Assembly: GCF_015207375.1 (NCBI RefSeq) | Contig: NZ_JADEWY010000043.1 | Location: forward strand, 12,200 to 44,199 | Reading direction: 5' to 3' | Length of the DNA stretch: 32,000 bases | Source of the DNA: Coleofasciculus sp. LEGE 07092 | Lineage (GTDB): Bacteria > Cyanobacteriota > Cyanobacteriia > Cyanobacteriales > Coleofasciculaceae | In this document: one piece after another, positions 4,450-16,677 of the stretch | Layout of the letters: every line of letters begins with the position of its first letter | Position numbering within the stretch: position 1 is the stretch's first letter | The notes under the pieces: generated by a model | Databases searched by the model: none | What the model was told of the DNA's origin: nothing | What the model saw: the letters and a program-made list of their open reading frames with translations, nothing else | Position numbers and translations under genes: made by a program

Positions 4450-5373
4450 TTACTGCGCCCATTGCCGTAAGAGATAAGCGTAGTATAGCTCCTTATTTAC
4501 TTTATCCATAGCCCAAATTTTTCTGCCATCCTTCTCTAGCTTGATTTTTCCCTGACTCAAACCCGTCGTTACGATCGCACTTTCCCATTCCCGCAGTTCA
4601 AAAAACTCTGGATGAGCGAGATAGGTGGTAGCCAGAACGTCCCAGAAGTAATAATCTTGGGGGATAACAAGGGCGTAACACTGTCCGGCAAAATCTGAGA
4701 GAGGATACTGACGCTGTTTACCTAACTGACGAACAAACTCGGAGGTAACGGGGACAGTGTTAGTGATGTCGAGGGGACACAGGATGATGGGAATCTGGGT
4801 TTGCCAAACCCGATGCACGGCGAGAGAGTCCCAGTAGGCATTCCATTCGGCTGAACCGTCCTGTCCCGCTTCTAGGCTTTTTTCAACGTTGCCAGGAACG
4901 TTGATAGCTCCTCCCATCCAGACAAGTTGCTCAATTTTGGCTTCGATTTCCGGTGCTAGGTCGAGGGCGGTGGCAAGGGTCGTTAATGGTCCTGTTACCA
5001 TGAGTGTGACAGGTTGAGCAGCACTTAAAAGCGATCGCACCATAAAGTCTTGACCCGTTTCTCTCAGCAGAGGAGTCTGAATCGATTCGTGTTGGTTGAG
5101 AATCGGCAGATGATCGACAATAAAAGAATCGCGGCGGTAGAGAGTAGGGAAGGGATTGATACCCCGTACTGTACTTTCGGCAACAGGAATATCCGAACGT
5201 CCCATCAAATCTAGAATTTTGCGAGTGGCGCTGACAGCAGGTTGAATGTAGCAGTCGGCAGGGGTGACAATGATACCTAAGGGTTGGATGTGTTCCATCG
5301 TCAGCAGCAGTAGGGTAGCGAGATAGTCATCCACACCGCCATCGTGATCTAGAATTACCAGTGGTTTGGACAT
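4450..5373 (-). CDS. Nucleoside hydrolase (inosine/uridine-preferring, IUNH family)
   Basis: The N-terminal aspartate cluster ILDHDGGVDD (DxDxxxDD) is characteristic of IU-nucleoside hydrolases, and 307 aa is the typical length. Confidence 0.8.
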   Translation of the reverse strand: MSKPLVILDHDGGVDDYLATLLLLTMEHIQPLGIIVTPADCYIQPAVSATRKILDLMGRSDIPVAESTVRGINPFPTLYRRDSFIVDHLPILNQHESIQTPLLRETGQDFMVRSLLSAAQPVTLMVTGPLTTLATALDLAPEIEAKIEQLVWMGGAINVPGNVEKSLEAGQDGSAEWNAYWDSLAVHRVWQTQIPIILCPLDITNTVPVTSEFVRQLGKQRQYPLSDFAGQCYALVIPQDYYFWDVLATTYLAHPEFFELREWESAIVTTGLSQGKIKLEKDGRKIWAMDKVNKELYYAYLLRQWAQ

Positions 5374-9545: not shown

Positions 9546-10154
9546 CTAATTGATTTTGCAAGTTGGCTCCGCGACTGGATCACCTTGAATGTAAGTCACA
9601 AACATCCGGTTTTGTAATTCTGTGAGAAGGCTAACATCTGTTATTTGGTTGTTACCGACGTAAAGAAACTCTAGGTTTGTGAATTTTAGTAGGGGACTGA
9701 AATCGGAAATTGGGTTGGCGATGAGGATAAGAGACTCTAGGTTTGTTAGTTCTGCCAAAGGGCTAATATCTGTGATTGGGTTAGCGGGAATGCCAAGATC
9801 CTCCAGATTCATAAGTTCTGCGAGAGGACTGACATCTGTGATTTGGTTATCTCTGAGGTAAAGCACCTCTAGGTTAGGAAGTCCTGCCAGAGGACTGACA
9901 TCTGTAATTTGGTAGCCACTGAGGGAAAGCTCAGTGCGACTTAACAGATTCTCGGCAGCTTGTTCACAATCACTTGTGCCTGCGGCTTCTAACAGCGCCT
10001 CTACTGTTTTTCTCGCTTCGGCTGACAAACTTGCTTTTTGTTGACACCACTCTTTAAAAGAACTCCCAAGACTGGGTTCAGCAGCGTGAGCGACTCCCCA
10101 GCCACTGAACACCCACATACTGATCATCACAGCAACAGCACTAGTCGATTTCAT
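9546..10154 (-). CDS. Secreted leucine-rich-repeat protein (internalin-like 22-aa LRRs)
   Basis: Signal peptide MKSTSAVAVMISMWVFSGWGVAHA is followed by a short helical region and about 6 units of NLExLxLxxNQITDVSPLAxL. The track start is 10172, but ATG 10154 is the one conserved in the relic copy and is preceded by GGGGAG. Confidence 0.8.
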   Translation of the reverse strand: MKSTSAVAVMISMWVFSGWGVAHAAEPSLGSSFKEWCQQKASLSAEARKTVEALLEAAGTSDCEQAAENLLSRTELSLSGYQITDVSPLAGLPNLEVLYLRDNQITDVSPLAELMNLEDLGIPANPITDISPLAELTNLESLILIANPISDFSPLLKFTNLEFLYVGNNQITDVSLLTELQNRMFVTYIQGDPVAEPTCKIN

Positions 10155-10476
10155 AGTTGATGAACTCCCCATAAGTCTTGTCTAGATTGTTATCGAACTT
10201 CCGAGCAACTATCTCAGCCAGTCCTTAAAACGTAACCCTTTAGTCAAGGTTCTCCCTTCATGAACTATTTAGGGCTGCTATAGTGCCTATTACTGAATGC
10301 TGAACACTTATGCAATAAATCTAATTTTTTAACCTTCAGTATTAATACCTAGCAAAAACATACTGCATATCCTCACTCTCGATGAGAGATAGATAAATTA
10401 ACAGCCATCTGTACTTTCTCTTAATGAAGGACTGAATCATGCGTCTATATCTAGTCAGCCTCTGCTTTGCCAGTAT

Positions 10477-11360: not shown

Positions 11361-12686
11361 ATGAAAAATATCAAACTGAGTACATTTTGGGAGTCGCTGC
11401 GCTCTAGCTACTGGTTTGTGCCAACACTCATGGCAGGGGGAGCGATCGCTCTAGCGTTTACGATAGTAACGCTTGACCAGTCCGGTAAATCTGGACCGAT
11501 TCAGAAGTTGGGCTGGGTATACACGGGGGGACCCGATGGTGCGAGGACAGTGCTTTCAACGATTGCGGGTTCGATGATTACCGTTGCGGGTACTGCTTTT
11601 TCGATTGTCATTGTTGCTCTTACACTGGCTTCCTCACAGTTCGGTCCACGACTGCTGCGGAACTTTATGCAGGATACGGGTAATCAGGTGGTGCTGGGTA
11701 CGTTCATCGCCACGTTTATCTACTGCTTGCTCGTTCTGCGGACTGTGCGGGGAGATGACTACAATGTATTTGTACCGCAGATTTCAGTAACAGTTGGTAT
11801 CTTATTAGGCATAGCCAGCATCGGTGTGCTGATTTACTTTATCCATCATGCCTCTACTTCGATTCAATCCTGGTATGTTATTAGAGAGGTAAATAAGGAT
11901 TTAGACTATGCCATTGACCACCTCTTCCCAGAACAGATCGGGCATGGCATACCAGAGAAGCGGCGGTGGGTTGAAGAAATTCCTGTAAATTTTGACGAAG
12001 AAGCTTCGCCAATTTTGGCAATTAACAGTGGCTATCTTCTGGCGATAGATGAGGAGCAGTTGCTGAAGATTGCCAAGTCAAAAGACCTCTTGCTGCGTCT
12101 CAACTATCGCCCAGGTCACTTTATCGTGCATAGACATGAAATTGTGAGGGTTTGGCATGGGGAACGGGTGAATGAGAAACTCACTCATCAAATTAATGAT
12201 GCATTTATTCTGGGTTCGGAGCGCACCGAGCAGCAGGATGTGGAATTTTCTATTCAGCAATTGGTGGAAATTGCCCTACGAGCCATCTCCCCTGCTATCA
12301 ACGATCCGTTTACCGCCATTCGCTGTATTGACAGGCTCAGTGCCGGACTTAACCGCTTGGCTCAAAAAGAATTCCCTTCCCCTTATCGCTACGATGAGGA
12401 TAACAATCTGCGGGTGATTGCTAACCCAGTGACATTCGTAGGGTTAATCGATGAAGCGTTTAACCAAATTCGACAGTATGGTAGTTCTGATGTCGCAGTA
12501 ACAATGCGCTTGTTAGAAGCGATCGCAATTATTGCCACCCAGACTCGTAACAAGAAAGACCGAACCGCGCTGCTGCGTCATGCTGAAATGATTAAGCGCG
12601 GTAGTCAAGAGGCAGTGTCGGAGGAGTGCGATCGCCAGGATATTGAGGAGCGATATTTGGCGGCGGTGAAGGTGCTACGACGGTAA
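11361..12686 (+). CDS. DUF2254-type membrane protein
   Basis: The N-terminus FWESLRSSYWFVPTLMAGGAIALAF plus 4-5 TM helices, followed by a ~230-aa soluble C-terminal domain, matches my memory of the DUF2254 architecture. Length 441 aa. Confidence 0.55.
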   Translation: MKNIKLSTFWESLRSSYWFVPTLMAGGAIALAFTIVTLDQSGKSGPIQKLGWVYTGGPDGARTVLSTIAGSMITVAGTAFSIVIVALTLASSQFGPRLLRNFMQDTGNQVVLGTFIATFIYCLLVLRTVRGDDYNVFVPQISVTVGILLGIASIGVLIYFIHHASTSIQSWYVIREVNKDLDYAIDHLFPEQIGHGIPEKRRWVEEIPVNFDEEASPILAINSGYLLAIDEEQLLKIAKSKDLLLRLNYRPGHFIVHRHEIVRVWHGERVNEKLTHQINDAFILGSERTEQQDVEFSIQQLVEIALRAISPAINDPFTAIRCIDRLSAGLNRLAQKEFPSPYRYDEDNNLRVIANPVTFVGLIDEAFNQIRQYGSSDVAVTMRLLEAIAIIATQTRNKKDRTALLRHAEMIKRGSQEAVSEECDRQDIEERYLAAVKVLRR

Positions 12687-12714
12687 GAATGGGGAGTGGG
12701 GAATAGGGAATTCT
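12687..12714. repeat. STRR-like heptamers (GAATGGG GAGTGGG GAATAGG GAATTCT)
   Basis: Read directly from the sequence. The motif gtaagaatggggagtgggga recurs at 17847. Confidence 0.8.
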
Positions 12715-12881
12715 GCTTCACCGAGTCGCGCCCTTTGCTGAAGAGTTTGTGATCTACTGGTGGTGCAAGATAGGAGTTGTATGCACTCTTCACAACAGGA
12801 TCGTCAAATTTGATAGAAAAACTAAAACCCCAAAACTTTATAGTGGAACTTCACGAATACATCAATAAGGTTAAAGATTGC

Positions 12882-12909
12882 TTGTAGACTGGAAGTAGGG
12901 GGTTATACT
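12882..12909 (+). promoter_or_regulatory. Candidate sigma70-type promoter for the NLR-like gene
   Basis: TTGTAG (12882-12887), a 16-nt spacer, then TATACT (12904-12909), about 27 nt upstream of ATG 12936. Confidence 0.3.
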
Positions 12910-12935
12910 CTGTAGCAGCTTTTCAGGATTAAGTT

Positions 12936-13376
12936 ATGGACCCGATCACACTTTCTGCAACAGCGATCGCAACTCTGGTAATCACCAAGGCGTTTGAAAA
13001 GTCTGGCGAAGTCTTGGGGGAAAAGGCACTGGAGCAAGGCGGGAAGTTGGTAAAATTGCTGAAAGAGCGATTTCCCAAGGCAGATTCGGCACTGGCGCGG
13101 GTGGAGGAGAAACCGGAAGATTGGGGGGAAGCGGTGCTGGAAATTGAAGCAGCGGCGCAGGCAGATCCGGAGGTGGCAGAAGCAGTTCAGGAGGTAGCGA
13201 CGGCGGCGAAGGATAACGCGAATGCCGAGATTGTGCAGAAACTGGAAGCGATAGAAGCGGCGATAAAGGCGCAACAACCTACCACTAGACAGGAATTTGG
13301 TAAGGTGGCAGAGGTCGTTGAAAAAGCCGTTTTTGGTAATACCTTTCGGGATTTTAGTGGTGGCATTCACTTCTGA
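12936..13376 (+). CDS. Helical N-terminal head module of the downstream NLR-like protein, terminated by an in-frame TGA
   Basis: The 146-aa Ala/Glu/Lys-rich product is predicted all-helical with a hydrophobic first helix (MDPITLSATAIATLVITKAF). It is in the same frame as 13452-16433, and the only stop between them is TGA at 13374-13376. Confidence 0.6.
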   Translation: MDPITLSATAIATLVITKAFEKSGEVLGEKALEQGGKLVKLLKERFPKADSALARVEEKPEDWGEAVLEIEAAAQADPEVAEAVQEVATAAKDNANAEIVQKLEAIEAAIKAQQPTTRQEFGKVAEVVEKAVFGNTFRDFSGGIHF

Positions 13377-13451
13377 CTCCAGTCGCCCGAACCGGAACGG
13401 GTAACGTTAAATCCGCCACAAAATCTTCCCTTCAGCGGCGTTGTTAAGTTT

Positions 13452-16433
13452 GTGGGACGGGAAGACATACTCAATACTCTACACCAGCAGTTGCAGGAAA
13501 ACGAGCGGGTAGCGATTTGTGCAGTTGCGGGGATGGGGGGTGTTGGGAAAACGGAATTGGCGCGGCAATATGCTGGGGAACAGTGGCAGCAGGGGACGTA
13601 TCCCGGTGGGGTGTGCTGGTTGCAGGCGCGGGGAGTCGATTTGGGGATTCAGATTGTTGAGTTTGCCAGAACTTATTTACAATTATCGATTCCGGAGGGG
13701 TTAGAGTTACCGCTTCAGGTGGCGTATTGCTGGCGGAATTGGTTCCACCCCCCAATCCCCCCTTACCAAGGGGGGGACACAGGGGGGGTTCTTATCGTCA
13801 TTGATGATGTCATAGATTATCAGCAGGTGCGGCAATATCTGCCCCCAGATACGTCTCGGTTTAAGGTACTCATCACGACGCGGTTACAGTTGGGTGCGTC
13901 AATTCCCCATATCGCGCTGGATGTGCTGAAACCCTTAGCCGCATTCGCTTTATTAAAATCCTTTATTGGACGAGAACAACTGCAACCCGAACCCTGGGAA
14001 GGGCGAAAACTCTGTCGCTGGTTGGGATATTTGCCGTTGGGGTTGGAGTTGGTGGGGCGATATTTGGGGCGGAAACCCCATTTATCGTTACAGGAGATGC
14101 TGTCTCGGTTGCAGGCAAAACGGTTGGAACAGTTAGCGCTGAAAAAGCCGAAGTCAGAGGATGATATGACGGCGCAATTGGGGGTACGAGATGCGTTTGA
14201 GTTGAGTTGGCAAGAGTTGGATGAGTCGGCGCGGGAATTGGGGATAGGGTTAAGTTTATTTGCTTCTGCACCGATTCCCTGGCGATTGGTGGAGGGGTGT
14301 TTGGCGGAGATTGATGGGGAGGAGTTGGAGGAAATTAGGGATTATGGGTTAGTGAATCTGCATTTAGTGCAGCGTCAAGGGAAGGATTTGTATCAATTAC
14401 ATCCGTTGATTCGGGAATTTTTGATCAGTAAGCGGGAAGCGTCAGGGATAGCGGATGAGTTGAAGCGGGATTTTTGTCGGGTGATGGTAGGGGAGGCAGA
14501 TAAAATTCCGGAGACACCGACATTGGCAGAGATTAAAGCAGTCAATCCGGTTATTCCTCATCTTGCAGAAGCGGCGACGAGTCAACAAGACTGGTTGATG
14601 GATGATGATTTAATAATGCCTTTTGGTGGTTTGAGTCGTTTTTATAAAGGTCAAGGACTCTATAATCAAGCTGAACCTTGGTATGAAGATTGTTTATCCG
14701 TCATTCGCCAGCGTTTGGGAAAAAATCATCCCCATGTTGCTACTAGCCTGAATAATTTAGCATTACTCTACCTTTTTCAAGGACGCTACCAGGAAGCTGA
14801 ACTTGTTTATCTAGAGGCTTTAGCACTATTCAAACGCCTGTTGGGAGAAAATCATCCCGATGTTGCTACTAGCCTGAATAATTTAGCAGGACTCTACTAT
14901 TATCAAGGACGCTACCAGGAAGCTGAACCTGTTTATCTAGAGGCTTTAGCGCTGAGAAAACGCCTGCTGGGAGAAAATCATCCCCATGTTGCTTCTAGCC
15001 TGAATAATTTAGCAGGACTCTACTATTCTCAAGGACGCTACCAGGAAGCAGAACCGCTTTATCTAGAGGCTTTAGCGCTGAGAAAACGCCTGCTGGGAGA
15101 AAATCATCCCCATGTTGCACAAAGCCTGAATAATTTAGCAGAACTCTACTCTTCTCAAGGACGCTACCAGGAAGCAGAACCGCTTTATCTAGAGGCTTTA
15201 GCGCTGAGAAAACGTCTGCTGGGAGAAAATCATCCCGATGTTGCACAAAGCCTGAATAATTTAGCAGGACTCTACAAATCTCAAGGACGTTACCAGGAAG
15301 CTGAACCTCTTTATCTAGAGGCTTTAGCGCTGAGAAAACGCCTGCTGGGAGAAAATCATCCCTCTGTCGCTACTAGCCTGAATAATTTAGCAGGACTCTA
15401 CCTTTTTCAAAGACGCTACCAGGAAGCTGAACCTCTTTATCTAGAGGCTTTAGCGCTGAGAAAACGCCTGCTGGGAGAAAATCATCCCTCTGTCGCTACT
15501 AGCCTGAATAATTTAGCATTACTCTACCTTTTTCAAGGACGCTACCAGGAAGCTGAACTTGTTTATCTAGAGGCTTTAGAACTGACTAAACGCCTGCTGG
15601 GAGAAAATCATCCCGATGTTGCTTCTAGCCTGAATAATTTAGCATTACTCTACCTTTTTCAAGGACGCTACCAGGAAGCTGAACTTGTTTATCTAGAGGC
15701 TTTAGCACTATTCAAACGCCTGTTGGGAGAAAATCATCCCGATGTTGCTACTAGCCTGAATAATTTAGCAGGACTCTACTATTATCAAGGACGCTACCAG
15801 GAAGCTGAACCTGTTTATCTAGAGGCTTTAGCGCTGAGAAAACGCCTGCTGGGAGAAAATCATCCCCATGTTGCTTCTAGCCTGAATAATTTAGCAGGAC
15901 TCTACTATTCTCAAGGACGCTACCAGGAAGCAGAACCGCTTTATCTAGAGGCTTTAGCGCTGAGAAAACGCCTGCTGGGAGAAAATCATCCCCATGTTGC
16001 ACAAAGCCTGAATAATTTAGCAGAACTCTACTCTTCTCAAGGACGCTACCAGGAAGCAGAACCGCTTTATCTAGAGGCTTTAGCGCTGAGAAAACGTCTG
16101 CTGGGAGAAAATCATCCCCATGTTGCTTCTAGCCTGAATAATTTAGCAGAACTCTACTCTTCTCAAGGACGCTACCAGGAAGCAGAACCTGTTTATCTAG
16201 AGGCTTTAGCGCTGAGAAAACGCCTGCTGGGAGAAAATCATCCCGATGTTGCACAAAGCCTGAATAATTTAGCAGGACTCTACTATTCTCAAGGACGCTA
16301 CCAGGAAGCAGAACCGCTTTATCTAGAGGCTGTCGCCATTGCCGATCGCACGTTAGGCTCTAATCATCCCAATACTATTCTCTACCGTAATAATCTGCAA
16401 ATCCTGCGCGATAGATTACGCCATTCTCCCTGA
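13452..16433 (+). CDS. NB-ARC (STAND) NTPase with a C-terminal array of about 14 TPRs (bacterial NLR-like)
   Basis: Carries FVGRE lead-in, P-loop GMGGVGKTELA, Walker B VLIVIDDV and KVLITTR (RNBS-B-like). These are followed by a winged-helix/linker region and 13 canonical plus 1 degenerate 42-aa kinesin-light-chain-type TPR units (SLNNLAxLYxxQGRYQEAEPLYLEALALRKRLLGENHPxVAx). The track start is GTG, and coding sequence evidently continues upstream through the TGA. Confidence 0.85.
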   Translation: MGREDILNTLHQQLQENERVAICAVAGMGGVGKTELARQYAGEQWQQGTYPGGVCWLQARGVDLGIQIVEFARTYLQLSIPEGLELPLQVAYCWRNWFHPPIPPYQGGDTGGVLIVIDDVIDYQQVRQYLPPDTSRFKVLITTRLQLGASIPHIALDVLKPLAAFALLKSFIGREQLQPEPWEGRKLCRWLGYLPLGLELVGRYLGRKPHLSLQEMLSRLQAKRLEQLALKKPKSEDDMTAQLGVRDAFELSWQELDESARELGIGLSLFASAPIPWRLVEGCLAEIDGEELEEIRDYGLVNLHLVQRQGKDLYQLHPLIREFLISKREASGIADELKRDFCRVMVGEADKIPETPTLAEIKAVNPVIPHLAEAATSQQDWLMDDDLIMPFGGLSRFYKGQGLYNQAEPWYEDCLSVIRQRLGKNHPHVATSLNNLALLYLFQGRYQEAELVYLEALALFKRLLGENHPDVATSLNNLAGLYYYQGRYQEAEPVYLEALALRKRLLGENHPHVASSLNNLAGLYYSQGRYQEAEPLYLEALALRKRLLGENHPHVAQSLNNLAELYSSQGRYQEAEPLYLEALALRKRLLGENHPDVAQSLNNLAGLYKSQGRYQEAEPLYLEALALRKRLLGENHPSVATSLNNLAGLYLFQRRYQEAEPLYLEALALRKRLLGENHPSVATSLNNLALLYLFQGRYQEAELVYLEALELTKRLLGENHPDVASSLNNLALLYLFQGRYQEAELVYLEALALFKRLLGENHPDVATSLNNLAGLYYYQGRYQEAEPVYLEALALRKRLLGENHPHVASSLNNLAGLYYSQGRYQEAEPLYLEALALRKRLLGENHPHVAQSLNNLAELYSSQGRYQEAEPLYLEALALRKRLLGENHPHVASSLNNLAELYSSQGRYQEAEPVYLEALALRKRLLGENHPDVAQSLNNLAGLYYSQGRYQEAEPLYLEAVAIADRTLGSNHPNTILYRNNLQILRDRLRHSP
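14700..16330 (+). repeat. 126-bp coding tandem repeat (x13, TPR units) with a perfect 7-unit-offset duplication
   Basis: The period of 126 bp is read directly. Block 14761-15236 reappears at 15643-16118 (offset 882 = 7 x 126), with no difference that I can see. Confidence 0.9.
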
Positions 16434-16550: not shown

Positions 16551-16677
16551 AAAACGGGATTAGGTTCTGCCAAGAGAGCCAACAGGAGCATCAATTTTCT
16601 CGCTCATCGCTTAAGTCTAGGCTCTGTAGACTAAAATACTCATCCAGGCGTCTTGGCGATCACTCCTCGATATTCTA

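Follow-up and report, generated by a model that had tools for sequence, protein, structure and literature searches.

A candidate UGA read-through gene for a Bell-type effector and an NB-ARC sensor in multicellular cyanobacteria

We analyzed a stretch of 32,000 nucleotides from the cyanobacterium Coleofasciculus sp. LEGE 07092 (contig NZ_JADEWY010000043.1, positions 12,200 to 44,199; hereafter the window, in whose own numbering coordinates are given). Two open reading frames (ORFs) on its plus strand, the first encoding a short helical protein (the head) and the second an NLR-like protein with NB-ARC and TPR domains, lie in one frame and are separated by a single TGA. From sequence comparison we propose that they are probably a single gene with programmed UGA read-through, which would yield an abundant Bell-BASS effector and a rare Bell-BASS-NLR sensor. 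The stop codon, the frame and an RNA structure 3' of the stop are conserved among related loci, the NLR part has no conserved start, the region downstream of the stop carries a coding signature, and the head and its motif match a described family.

One Reading Frame Interrupted by One UGA

The head ORF has 146 codons and runs from an ATG at 12936, located 7 nt downstream of a Shine-Dalgarno-like AGGA (12925..12928), to the TGA at 13374-13376, the proposed recoding site, which stands in the context UUC UGA CUC. This TGA is the sole stop between the head ORF and the NB-ARC/TPR ORF; beyond it the frame is open for 1018 codons, up to the stop at 16431..16433, which makes 146 + 1 + 1018 = 1165 codons in total. 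A preliminary description of this DNA had already recognized one frame of about 1165 codons with a single TGA in it, and our reading of the window DNA confirms this. Translation through the TGA gives ...FSGGIHF*LQSPEPERVTLNPPQNLPFSGVVKFVGRED...GMGGVGKT. Immediately 3' of the stop (LQSPEPERVTLNPPQNLP..) there is neither a copy of the BASS motif nor a start, and the only canonical starts ahead of the P-loop are a GTG at 13452 (codon 26 after the stop), with no Shine-Dalgarno-like sequence 5' of it, and a TTG at codon 39.

The arrangement of head, TGA and NLR is far beyond chance. Nor is it an assembly error, which had been considered at the outset and which we exclude because a second assembly contig (L087, GCA_015207445.1) is 100% identical across 2276 bp, TGA included, and because homologous loci share the same stop.

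Conservation of the Stop Codon and of the Frame

The DNA of 84 loci (80 genome loci and four others), from Nostoc, Komarekiella, Calothrix, Scytonema, Potamolinea, Aulosira, Coleofasciculus and further genera, was examined by reading every head frame onward through its stop. Where the head ends in TGA, the frame stays open for at least 200 further codons in 53 of 62 loci (range 240-1018, with no further stop), and among the 22 heads with a TAA or TAG stop just 1 continues in this way (Fisher p = 8e-12). A conserved in-frame stop followed by a long open frame, the pattern expected of recoding, is present in these 53 loci; the stop is TGA in all of them, and the C at +4 and the U at +5 are nearly invariant. 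The junction consensus, ..F-[NH]-F UGA CUA [CA]AG [UC]CG CC[CU].., is near-identical in all loci, and the consensus peptide beyond it reads LQSPE..RVKLNPP..NLPLSGVxxFVGRE..GMGGVGKT. Heads from different genera are merely 40-55% identical, yet the TGA, the CUA context and the frame are kept.

Whether orthologues have a sense codon at the position of the stop had been raised in the preliminary description: the TGA is kept in the 53 in-frame loci, and a sense codon stands at that site in none of the 84. Likewise, a protein query spanning the junction retrieved no sense-codon orthologue from 5.8 billion proteins, and its matches with 68-82% coverage proved to be NLRs whose N-terminal domains are different. 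Elsewhere this junction stands in front of an nSTAND1-WD40 protein (L016), a NACHT-HEAT protein (L077), further NB-ARC proteins and a small number of non-STAND ORFs. Among the latter, L010 (3393-5207) has the same head type, a TGA with a directly adjacent GTG start and then a CHASE2 protein, and L012 (4501-5655) has the same head type, a TGA and then a PsbP-like protein of 240 aa; the cassette of head and junction is therefore not confined to NLR partners. At L047 and L066 (4501-4920 in each) the Bell ORF contains a premature TAA (codon 85 or 29), with the junction element and the in-frame NLR intact; these premature stops may be recent inactivations or sequencing errors.

The same head family includes 14 classical pairs, in which the NLR starts at an ATG of its own and usually repeats the motif of the head after it. 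Their heads mostly end in TAA or TAG, no pseudoknot follows, and the frame offsets between the two genes are 1, 1, 2, 1, 2, 2, 0, 1, 2, 1, 1, 2, 2 and 0, that is, in frame in 2 of 14. By contrast, the TGA type has a single motif copy, no ATG, invariably frame 0, and a pseudoknot (in one group, described below, a longer hairpin). This contrast, together with the pseudoknot and the position of the BASS motif, which ends exactly at the stop, goes beyond the preliminary description. Fused Bell-NLR proteins are rare: P0190 has 909 aa and a NACHT-type P-loop (GKPGTGKT), and L003 encodes a protein of 769 aa with a Pfam NACHT domain, whose gene has a Ser codon in place of the stop and has lost the 5' strand of the first pseudoknot stem. 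Because such proteins exist, the predicted read-through product would be a viable architecture. The region 196-3256 of L003, and likewise L004, contains a Bell gene ending in TAA, then a decayed remnant of the junction and then the fused Bell-BASS-NACHT protein.

A Conserved RNA Structure 3' of the UGA

A putative H-type pseudoknot (13385..13415) follows the UGA after a spacer of 8 nt (CUCCAGUC, 13377..13384), whose length is fixed in all aligned loci; it is indicated by covariation, synonymous constraint and a shift of codon phase. The first stem (S1, 5 bp) pairs 13385-13389 (GCCCG) with 13398-13402 (CGGGU), the second (S2, 4 bp) pairs 13393-13396 (CGGA, in the loop) with 13412-13415 (UCCG), and the third loop (L3, 13403-13411) is A-rich. 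In the alignment of 47-53 junctions, with pairing figures taken from the main group, 98% of the S1 cells and 89-98% of those of the four inner S2 pairs are paired, as against 20-50% in slid controls. Pairs are exchanged for one another, both in S1 (columns 24-36: CG 23, UG 12, UA 8, GC 3; columns 22-38: CG 40, UA 5) and in S2 (columns 30-52: GC 33, CG 5, AU 3, GU 3), and double, compensatory changes occupy 27 cells, compared with 7.1 +/- 2.3 after shuffling (0 of 500 shuffles reach 27). The presence of G-U pairs places the structure on the sense RNA. Synonymous sites are constrained over the first ~21 codons (pS, the proportion of synonymous differences, is 0.17, vs 0.46-0.54 elsewhere) and the amino acids there are variable, which therefore points to an RNA element embedded in coding sequence. 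When 757 kb were searched on both strands with a covariance model, the element was found once per locus and always at the junction; an Rfam scan of 12800-13700 matched no family.

Further support came from a metagenome pattern scan, which returned four loci, one of them (L088) a chance match. In the three informative ones (junctions at 861-915 in L089, and on the minus strand at 1588-1642 in L090 and 3715-3769 in L091), the UGA and the pseudoknot lie behind an alpha/beta-hydrolase of ~310 aa (DUF676/PGAP1-like, with GxSxG) that has a BASS-like tail, and are followed by an NB-ARC protein. One extra loop nucleotide shifts the codon phase in these loci (EQGTGKVKSP, not EGERVKLNP), and the NB-ARC part stays in frame. 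The same RNA is thus read in another codon phase, and therefore its conservation is at the level of RNA and the cassette is modular. The effectors that it joins are of two types or more (Bell, alpha/beta-hydrolase), and their STAND partners of three or more (NB-ARC-TPR, nSTAND1-WD40, NACHT-HEAT).

UGA is the leakiest of the stop codons, termination in E. coli is weakest with C at +4, and 8 nt is the distance between stop and structure in viral recoding signals. A leaky context and a covarying 3' RNA structure are thus found together at these loci, and we infer that the UGA-C-U context and the pseudoknot stimulate read-through on cyanobacterial ribosomes. A Nostoc subgroup with ESIV/ESIL linkers (L036, L038, L046, L048, L049, L057 and L058, junctions near 4867-4950) has a longer-range hairpin, GCCCCAAGGGG with CCCCU..UGGGGU, which also starts 8 nt past the UGA and has a fold z-score of -1.8.

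A Linker with a Coding Signature and without a Start Codon

Between the TGA and the NB-ARC module, the linker codons LQSPEPERVTLNPPQNLPFSGVVK (13377..13448) have no start of their own and are in frame with both the head and the NB-ARC. No start position between the TGA and the P-loop is conserved across the compared loci: L008 and L072 have no ATG, GTG or TTG whatever ahead of the P-loop, the sole start in L001 is a GTG at codon 52, and the TTG that is common in Nostoc alternates synonymously with TTA and CTT. The linker nevertheless evolves as coding sequence. Nei-Gojobori counts, accompanied by codon-position entropies, gave a ratio of nonsynonymous to synonymous differences (pN/pS) of 0.27-0.30 for the PQNLPxSGVxxFVG stretch, vs 0.24 in the NB-ARC, and every linker indel is a multiple of 3. 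In the clade of the window, the PQNLPxSGV stretch lies upstream of every possible start.

In the classical NLRs L040 and L028, the homologous linker is downstream of an ATG and a BASS motif (in L040 an ATG and a BASS7 motif lead into it, MTTENWNGINIKGGNPVINI-SQSERAKLNPPKHLPYQGV), so that in these relatives the linker is unquestionably coding. A downstream ORF that lacks its own initiation site and bears a coding signature, as recoding predicts, is what we observe, and judged from its substitution pattern the stretch ahead of any start is translated. Of the two-product arrangements suggested in the preliminary description, low-level read-through is supported by these data; a free head with a headless sensor is not, given that no start is conserved and that the peptide preceding every possible start is under purifying selection. 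Orthologues forming two genes, with an independent and conserved start for the NTPase, had been named as evidence against a single frame: the separating stop is indeed there, the conserved independent start is absent.

The Head and Its Signaling Motif

The Bell domain has been described as ~120-140 aa long, mostly stand-alone and rarely N-terminal in NLRs, with an N-terminal hydrophobic helix that has an acidic residue at position 2-3 and a helical bundle; it is enriched in Nostocaceae and adjoins NLR genes, and the founding sequence of its profile is Saccharothrix ONI86675.1 (Dyrka et al. 2020, bioRxiv 10.1101/2020.01.06.895854). Residues 1-118 of the head (12936..13289) appear to form such a domain, with an N-terminal hydrophobic helix and an acidic residue 2 (MDPITLSATAIATLVITKAFEK); the N-terminus reads M-D-P-ITLSATAIATLVITKAF, and the family consensus is MEP..L.AAAIATLVITKAFEK. 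The 56 close homologues of the head are all 104-248 aa long, nearly all stand-alone, with no long fusion protein among them. Searching 1.8 billion representatives with a profile returned 490 clusters at 50% identity, nearly all of 120-160 aa, with a handful of long fusions. In both length and stand-alone habit, as well as in its N-terminal hydrophobic helix with an acidic residue, the head agrees with published Bell domains, and the HeLo/Bell-type assignment guessed at in the preliminary description is in line with these features.

Structure prediction had been suggested as a check. The AlphaFold2 model of the head is all-helical, with a predicted local distance difference test score of 75.6 and a predicted template modeling score of 0.72 (residues 136-146 are of low confidence or disordered), and its comparison with the Protein Data Bank (PDB) is taken up below. 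The head profile matched only designed coiled coils among PDB sequences, and Pfam and PADLOC, neither of which holds a Bell model, returned noise only. A link between the family and the published Bell alignment was sought by way of RCJ33357.1 and not obtained, the head of L057 being RCJ41357.1, a different protein of the same genome. The assignment to the Bell type consequently rests on published features and motif identity, because the fold was not confirmed in the PDB; on those grounds the head matches a Bell-type domain.

The last 28 residues of the head (119-146, 13290..13373, QEFGKVAEVVEKAVFGNTFRDFSGGIHF) form a predicted BASS5-like amyloid signaling motif that ends at the stop codon. Heads of the Nostoc relatives end in ..ENWQGINIKGGTNTISGNTFNF, identical to published BASS7 rows, and those of other relatives end in BASS5 tails, KLAEKIGMVVQGG...NF; published BASS5 examples include NKLAEKIGMVVQDGGKVDIQTFN and similar sequences (Dyrka et al. 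2020, bioRxiv 10.1101/2020.01.06.895854). The tail in the window, GKVAEVVEKAVFGNTFRDFSGGIHF, aligns with the KLAEKIGMVVQGG..NF tails as a divergent BASS5-like motif. The C-terminal BASS motif expected of an effector is therefore present in the family. The second element of such signaling, a matching motif on an adjacent and separately initiated NLR, occurs in the classical relatives and is missing at the locus in the window, where only read-through would place a motif, the head's own, before the NLR.

The Sensor Half

The NB-ARC NTPase module (13449..14660; Pfam NB-ARC PF00931, E = 1.5e-13) opens with FVGRE (13449-13463). Its signature motifs are all intact and in order at 13530-14420: the P-loop GMGGVGKT (13530-13553), the Walker B LIVIDDV (13791-13811), LITTR (TTR/RNBS-B, 13869-13883), GYLPLGL (GLPL, 14025-14045) and the MHD-like LHPLIREF (14397-14420). 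The TPR sensor region follows (14661..16430), with 14 TPR_12/TPR_10 stretches (Pfam TPR_12, E = 1e-240). Both the motifs and the repeat sensor identify the protein as an NB-ARC (AP-ATPase) type STAND NTPase with a TPR sensor, and the NLR-like architecture first noted for it thus stands. Within the sensor, a tandem unit of 126 bp (42 aa) is present in 12.8 copies at 14716-16331 with 92% DNA identity, which suggests recent repeat expansion or shuffling, as described for fast-evolving NLR sensors.

Proposed Mechanism

Most ribosomes would stop at the UGA (13374-13376) and release a 146-aa protein made of a membrane-targeting helical domain of Bell type and a C-terminal BASS5-like motif. A minority would decode the UGA, most plausibly with near-cognate tRNA-Trp, and produce a 1165-aa Bell-BASS-linker-NB-ARC-TPR protein, helped by the weak UGA-C(UN) context and by the compact pseudoknot, which at 8 nt 3' of the stop would sit at the mRNA entrance of the ribosome. 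A single message could in this way provide sensor and effector in a fixed, effector-rich ratio, with the same amyloid motif on both. Upon triggering of the TPR sensor, the NB-ARC would oligomerize and the clustered motifs would nucleate an amyloid fold, which in turn would template free heads and switch on their cell-death activity. Comparable steps of decoding are documented in viruses: in E. coli, tRNA-Trp reads the UGA that ends the coat gene of Q-beta (PMC7764779), and gag-pol of murine leukemia virus (MuLV) is expressed by in-frame read-through with a 3' pseudoknot (PMC5009743).

If read-through does occur, motif match and effector-rich stoichiometry would be hard-wired. The broader claim, that a whole family of chromosomal bacterial genes uses programmed, pseudoknot-stimulated UGA read-through, which would be the first such case, and that a modular cassette derives an amyloid-triggered killer and an NLR sensor that share one prion-like motif from one ORF pair, we hold to be rather likely on balance. 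Because the dosage of the sensor would depend on the efficiency of termination at the UGA, this site could also report changes in termination induced by infection, such as phage suppressor tRNAs or depletion of release factor 2.

Alternative Explanations

The head and the NLR may instead be two separate proteins, the first ending at the TGA and the second arising by reinitiation, by 70S scanning to a GTG or TTG, or from a non-canonical start in the linker, while the RNA structure would act in translational coupling, or in the processing or differential stability of the mRNA. We regard this as unlikely. Gene callers do annotate two genes (at L005, for instance, with a TTG at codon 21), a TTG or GTG is present at codons 18-27 in many Nostoc loci, classical Bell/NLR pairs are two genes, and the A/U-rich single strand past the hairpin (AAAGUUAAAU) resembles an RNase E site. 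However, no start recurs at a conserved position, and ahead of the P-loop some loci lack one altogether; purifying selection acts on NPPQNLPxSGV, which in the clade of the window precedes the first start; 53 of 53 loci keep the frame, vs 2 of 14 classical pairs, with indels always in multiples of 3; an NLR made in this way would carry no BASS motif for signaling to the adjacent Bell-BASS partner; and a scan of 12600-13700 revealed nothing resembling a promoter or a terminator. That the locus is a pseudogene in decay, derived from a Bell-NLR gene that was once fused, or a relic without function, has a practically negligible probability, even though a lone in-frame stop in a long ORF looks like a fresh nonsense mutation and some relatives have truly decayed (the L003/L004 remnant, L021, L065, L047 and L066). 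The position and identity of the stop are the same across genera, with 240-1018 open codons beyond it, the NB-ARC motifs are intact, selection downstream is purifying, structured RNA co-occurs with the stop, and genuine decay elsewhere is marked by extra stops and loss of frame. The very recent pseudogene proposed in the preliminary description is thereby contradicted, its TGA, CUA context and frame being conserved among genera with such divergent heads.

Specific decoding of the UGA, either as selenocysteine (Sec) directed by a hairpin resembling a selenocysteine insertion sequence (SECIS) or by a dedicated suppressor tRNA, would make the long protein the main product; we find this very improbable. 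The distance from hairpin to UGA does fit the geometry of bacterial SECIS elements, in which the loop begins about 16 nt from the U, and there are G residues in the loop. These Gs, however, pair with downstream sequence and covary with it, as in a pseudoknot and not in a free SECIS loop. Selenoprotein genes are recognized by Cys in homologues and by the Sec machinery, and a Cys codon is found at the site in none of the 84 loci (the fused relative L003 has Ser); heads that end in TAA or TAG at the same position show that termination there yields a complete protein; and selenocysteine has no chemical rationale in a Pro/Glu-rich linker. Surveyed cyanobacteria with selD are listed among organisms without the Sec-decoding trait (PMC1273633). 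As to a suppressor tRNA, the window contains none, its tRNA scan having detected tRNA-Ser only. Translational bypassing, or stop hopping, in which a ribosome with peptidyl-tRNA-Phe slides past the UGA and resumes in frame with a few residues missing, should show in the genome just as read-through does, by an in-frame stop with a structure 3' of it and by the lack of a start, and some presumed read-through cases could be stop hops (Atkins review, PMC5009743). But there is no matching landing codon, the next UUC or UUU past the stop not being conserved, and no natural case is known (PMC5009743), which makes bypassing extremely improbable here. Frameshifting was rejected in both directions: for -1 a slippery heptamer is missing and only about 25 codons of the frame are open, and a +1 shift at UUC-UGA-C would meet a conserved TAA 11 codons on, with the NLR in frame 0.

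Programmed read-through, the explanation that we prefer, has its own difficulties, and the following observations weigh against it. The case is one of comparative genomics throughout, the related loci are phylogenetically non-independent, and we know of no bacterial cellular gene with pseudoknot-stimulated read-through, a mechanism that would be without precedent in this domain of life. Nested minimum free energy folds of six junctions gave, in five, z-scores of about +0.5 to -0.4, no better than shuffled sequences, with a tool that cannot score pseudoknots, and thermodynamics alone therefore does not single out the element. S2 has merely 4 bp, its outer fifth pair being poorly supported, and the seven loci of the ESIV group have a different, longer hairpin in place of the compact pseudoknot. 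Over the first ~21 codons past the stop pN/pS is about 1.0-1.3, which speaks for two separate proteins, and the coding signature begins only after them, therefore leaving room for a non-canonical start in that interval. On the side of the head, the AlphaFold2 model found no significant match in the PDB with Foldseek (best E = 1.3), and the BASS5 likeness of the window tail, judged by alignment and by eye, is weaker than the BASS7 identity of the Nostoc relatives.

Genomic Surroundings

The head gene is preceded in the window by an LRR protein gene (9546-10172, minus strand) and a gene for a DUF2254 membrane protein (11361-12686, plus strand); the wider neighborhood (GT2, DUF2064, NadA) resembles ordinary chromosome and not a defense island. 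Directly past the NLR stop, a 21-bp unit is repeated 11.5 times at 16678-16918 and gives rise to repetitive, mechanical ORFs at 16617-17003 (minus strand) and 16696-16887 (plus strand). Two small plus-strand ORFs, 17072-17482 (136 aa) and 17482-17778 (98 aa), overlap by stop and start and have no Pfam match; situated next to the NLR, they could be a toxin/immunity-like pair.

Implications

The NLR-like proteins and amyloid signaling of bacteria are now viewed as ancestral or analogous to the innate immunity of eukaryotes. If the proposal is correct, dozens of orphan Bell-BASS genes of cyanobacteria and the adjacent, apparently 'N-terminally truncated' NLRs would be mis-annotated halves of one recoded gene, gene callers at present dividing such loci in two, a hypothetical protein and an NLR whose start is arbitrary. 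An in-frame TGA in a STAND gene of a multicellular bacterium should not be taken automatically as the mark of a pseudogene. Bacteria would, moreover, be using a virus-style signal (a leaky UGA-C with a 3' pseudoknot) in chromosomal genes of their own. Read-through would explain simply why the amyloid motifs of sensor and effector stay identical and their stoichiometry stays safe, and the compact element, about 45 nt long, would be directly testable in reporters.

Relation to Known Systems

The Bell/BASS-NLR pairs (Dyrka et al. 2020, bioRxiv 10.1101/2020.01.06.895854) resemble the window locus in having a short helical protein of ~120-150 aa with a C-terminal BASS motif, encoded directly upstream of, and collinear with, an NB-ARC/NACHT gene with TPR or WD repeats, and they share its taxonomic range, Nostocaceae and other multicellular cyanobacteria. 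In the published pairs, a second motif copy is on an NLR with its own start, and distances or overlaps between the genes give any frame, whereas here the NLR lacks both start and motif copy, is always in frame behind a UGA, and a pseudoknot follows the stop. That paper makes no mention of stop codons or read-through, and our literature search on read-through in Bell/BASS/NLR genes or in cyanobacterial STAND genes found none. Amyloid templating and cell killing have been proven experimentally for the Bab/Agp system, by which E. coli counters phage through abortive infection (Ibarlosa et al. 2024, bioRxiv 10.1101/2024.11.07.622273) and in which, likewise, a small, Bell-related helical killer bearing a C-terminal amyloid motif is activated by an adjacent sensor bearing the same motif. 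It differs in consisting of two genes, in its sensor, which is TPR-GreA/B-C-PIN rather than a STAND NTPase, and in the lack of recoding; no sequence or fold match was detected between Bab and the head in the window.

Regarding decoding, viral read-through (MuLV, alphaviruses and plant viruses with UGA-CUA/CGG and a 3' stem-loop, Q-beta) also gives an abundant short and a rare extended product, from a UGA-C(UA) context with a structure about 8 nt 3' of the stop. The viral cases concern viral RNAs, mostly eukaryotic, and Q-beta is not known to use a pseudoknot; the present one concerns chromosomal bacterial genes of immune type, with a signal common to a whole gene family. Bacterial selenoprotein genes similarly have an in-frame UGA and a conserved stem-loop close 3' of it, but here the loop is engaged in a second helix, there is no Cys homologue, and termination at the site gives a complete, conserved protein. 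Bell/BASS/NLR systems are thus known, as is viral read-through with a 3' pseudoknot, and we found no description of their combination in a chromosomal bacterial gene family. A last parallel is offered by fungi, where, in HET-S/NWD2-type signaling and in all-in-one HeLo-NLR proteins, the effector is either split from the sensor, with a shared prion-like motif, or fused to it; through read-through, the locus in the window would be both at once.

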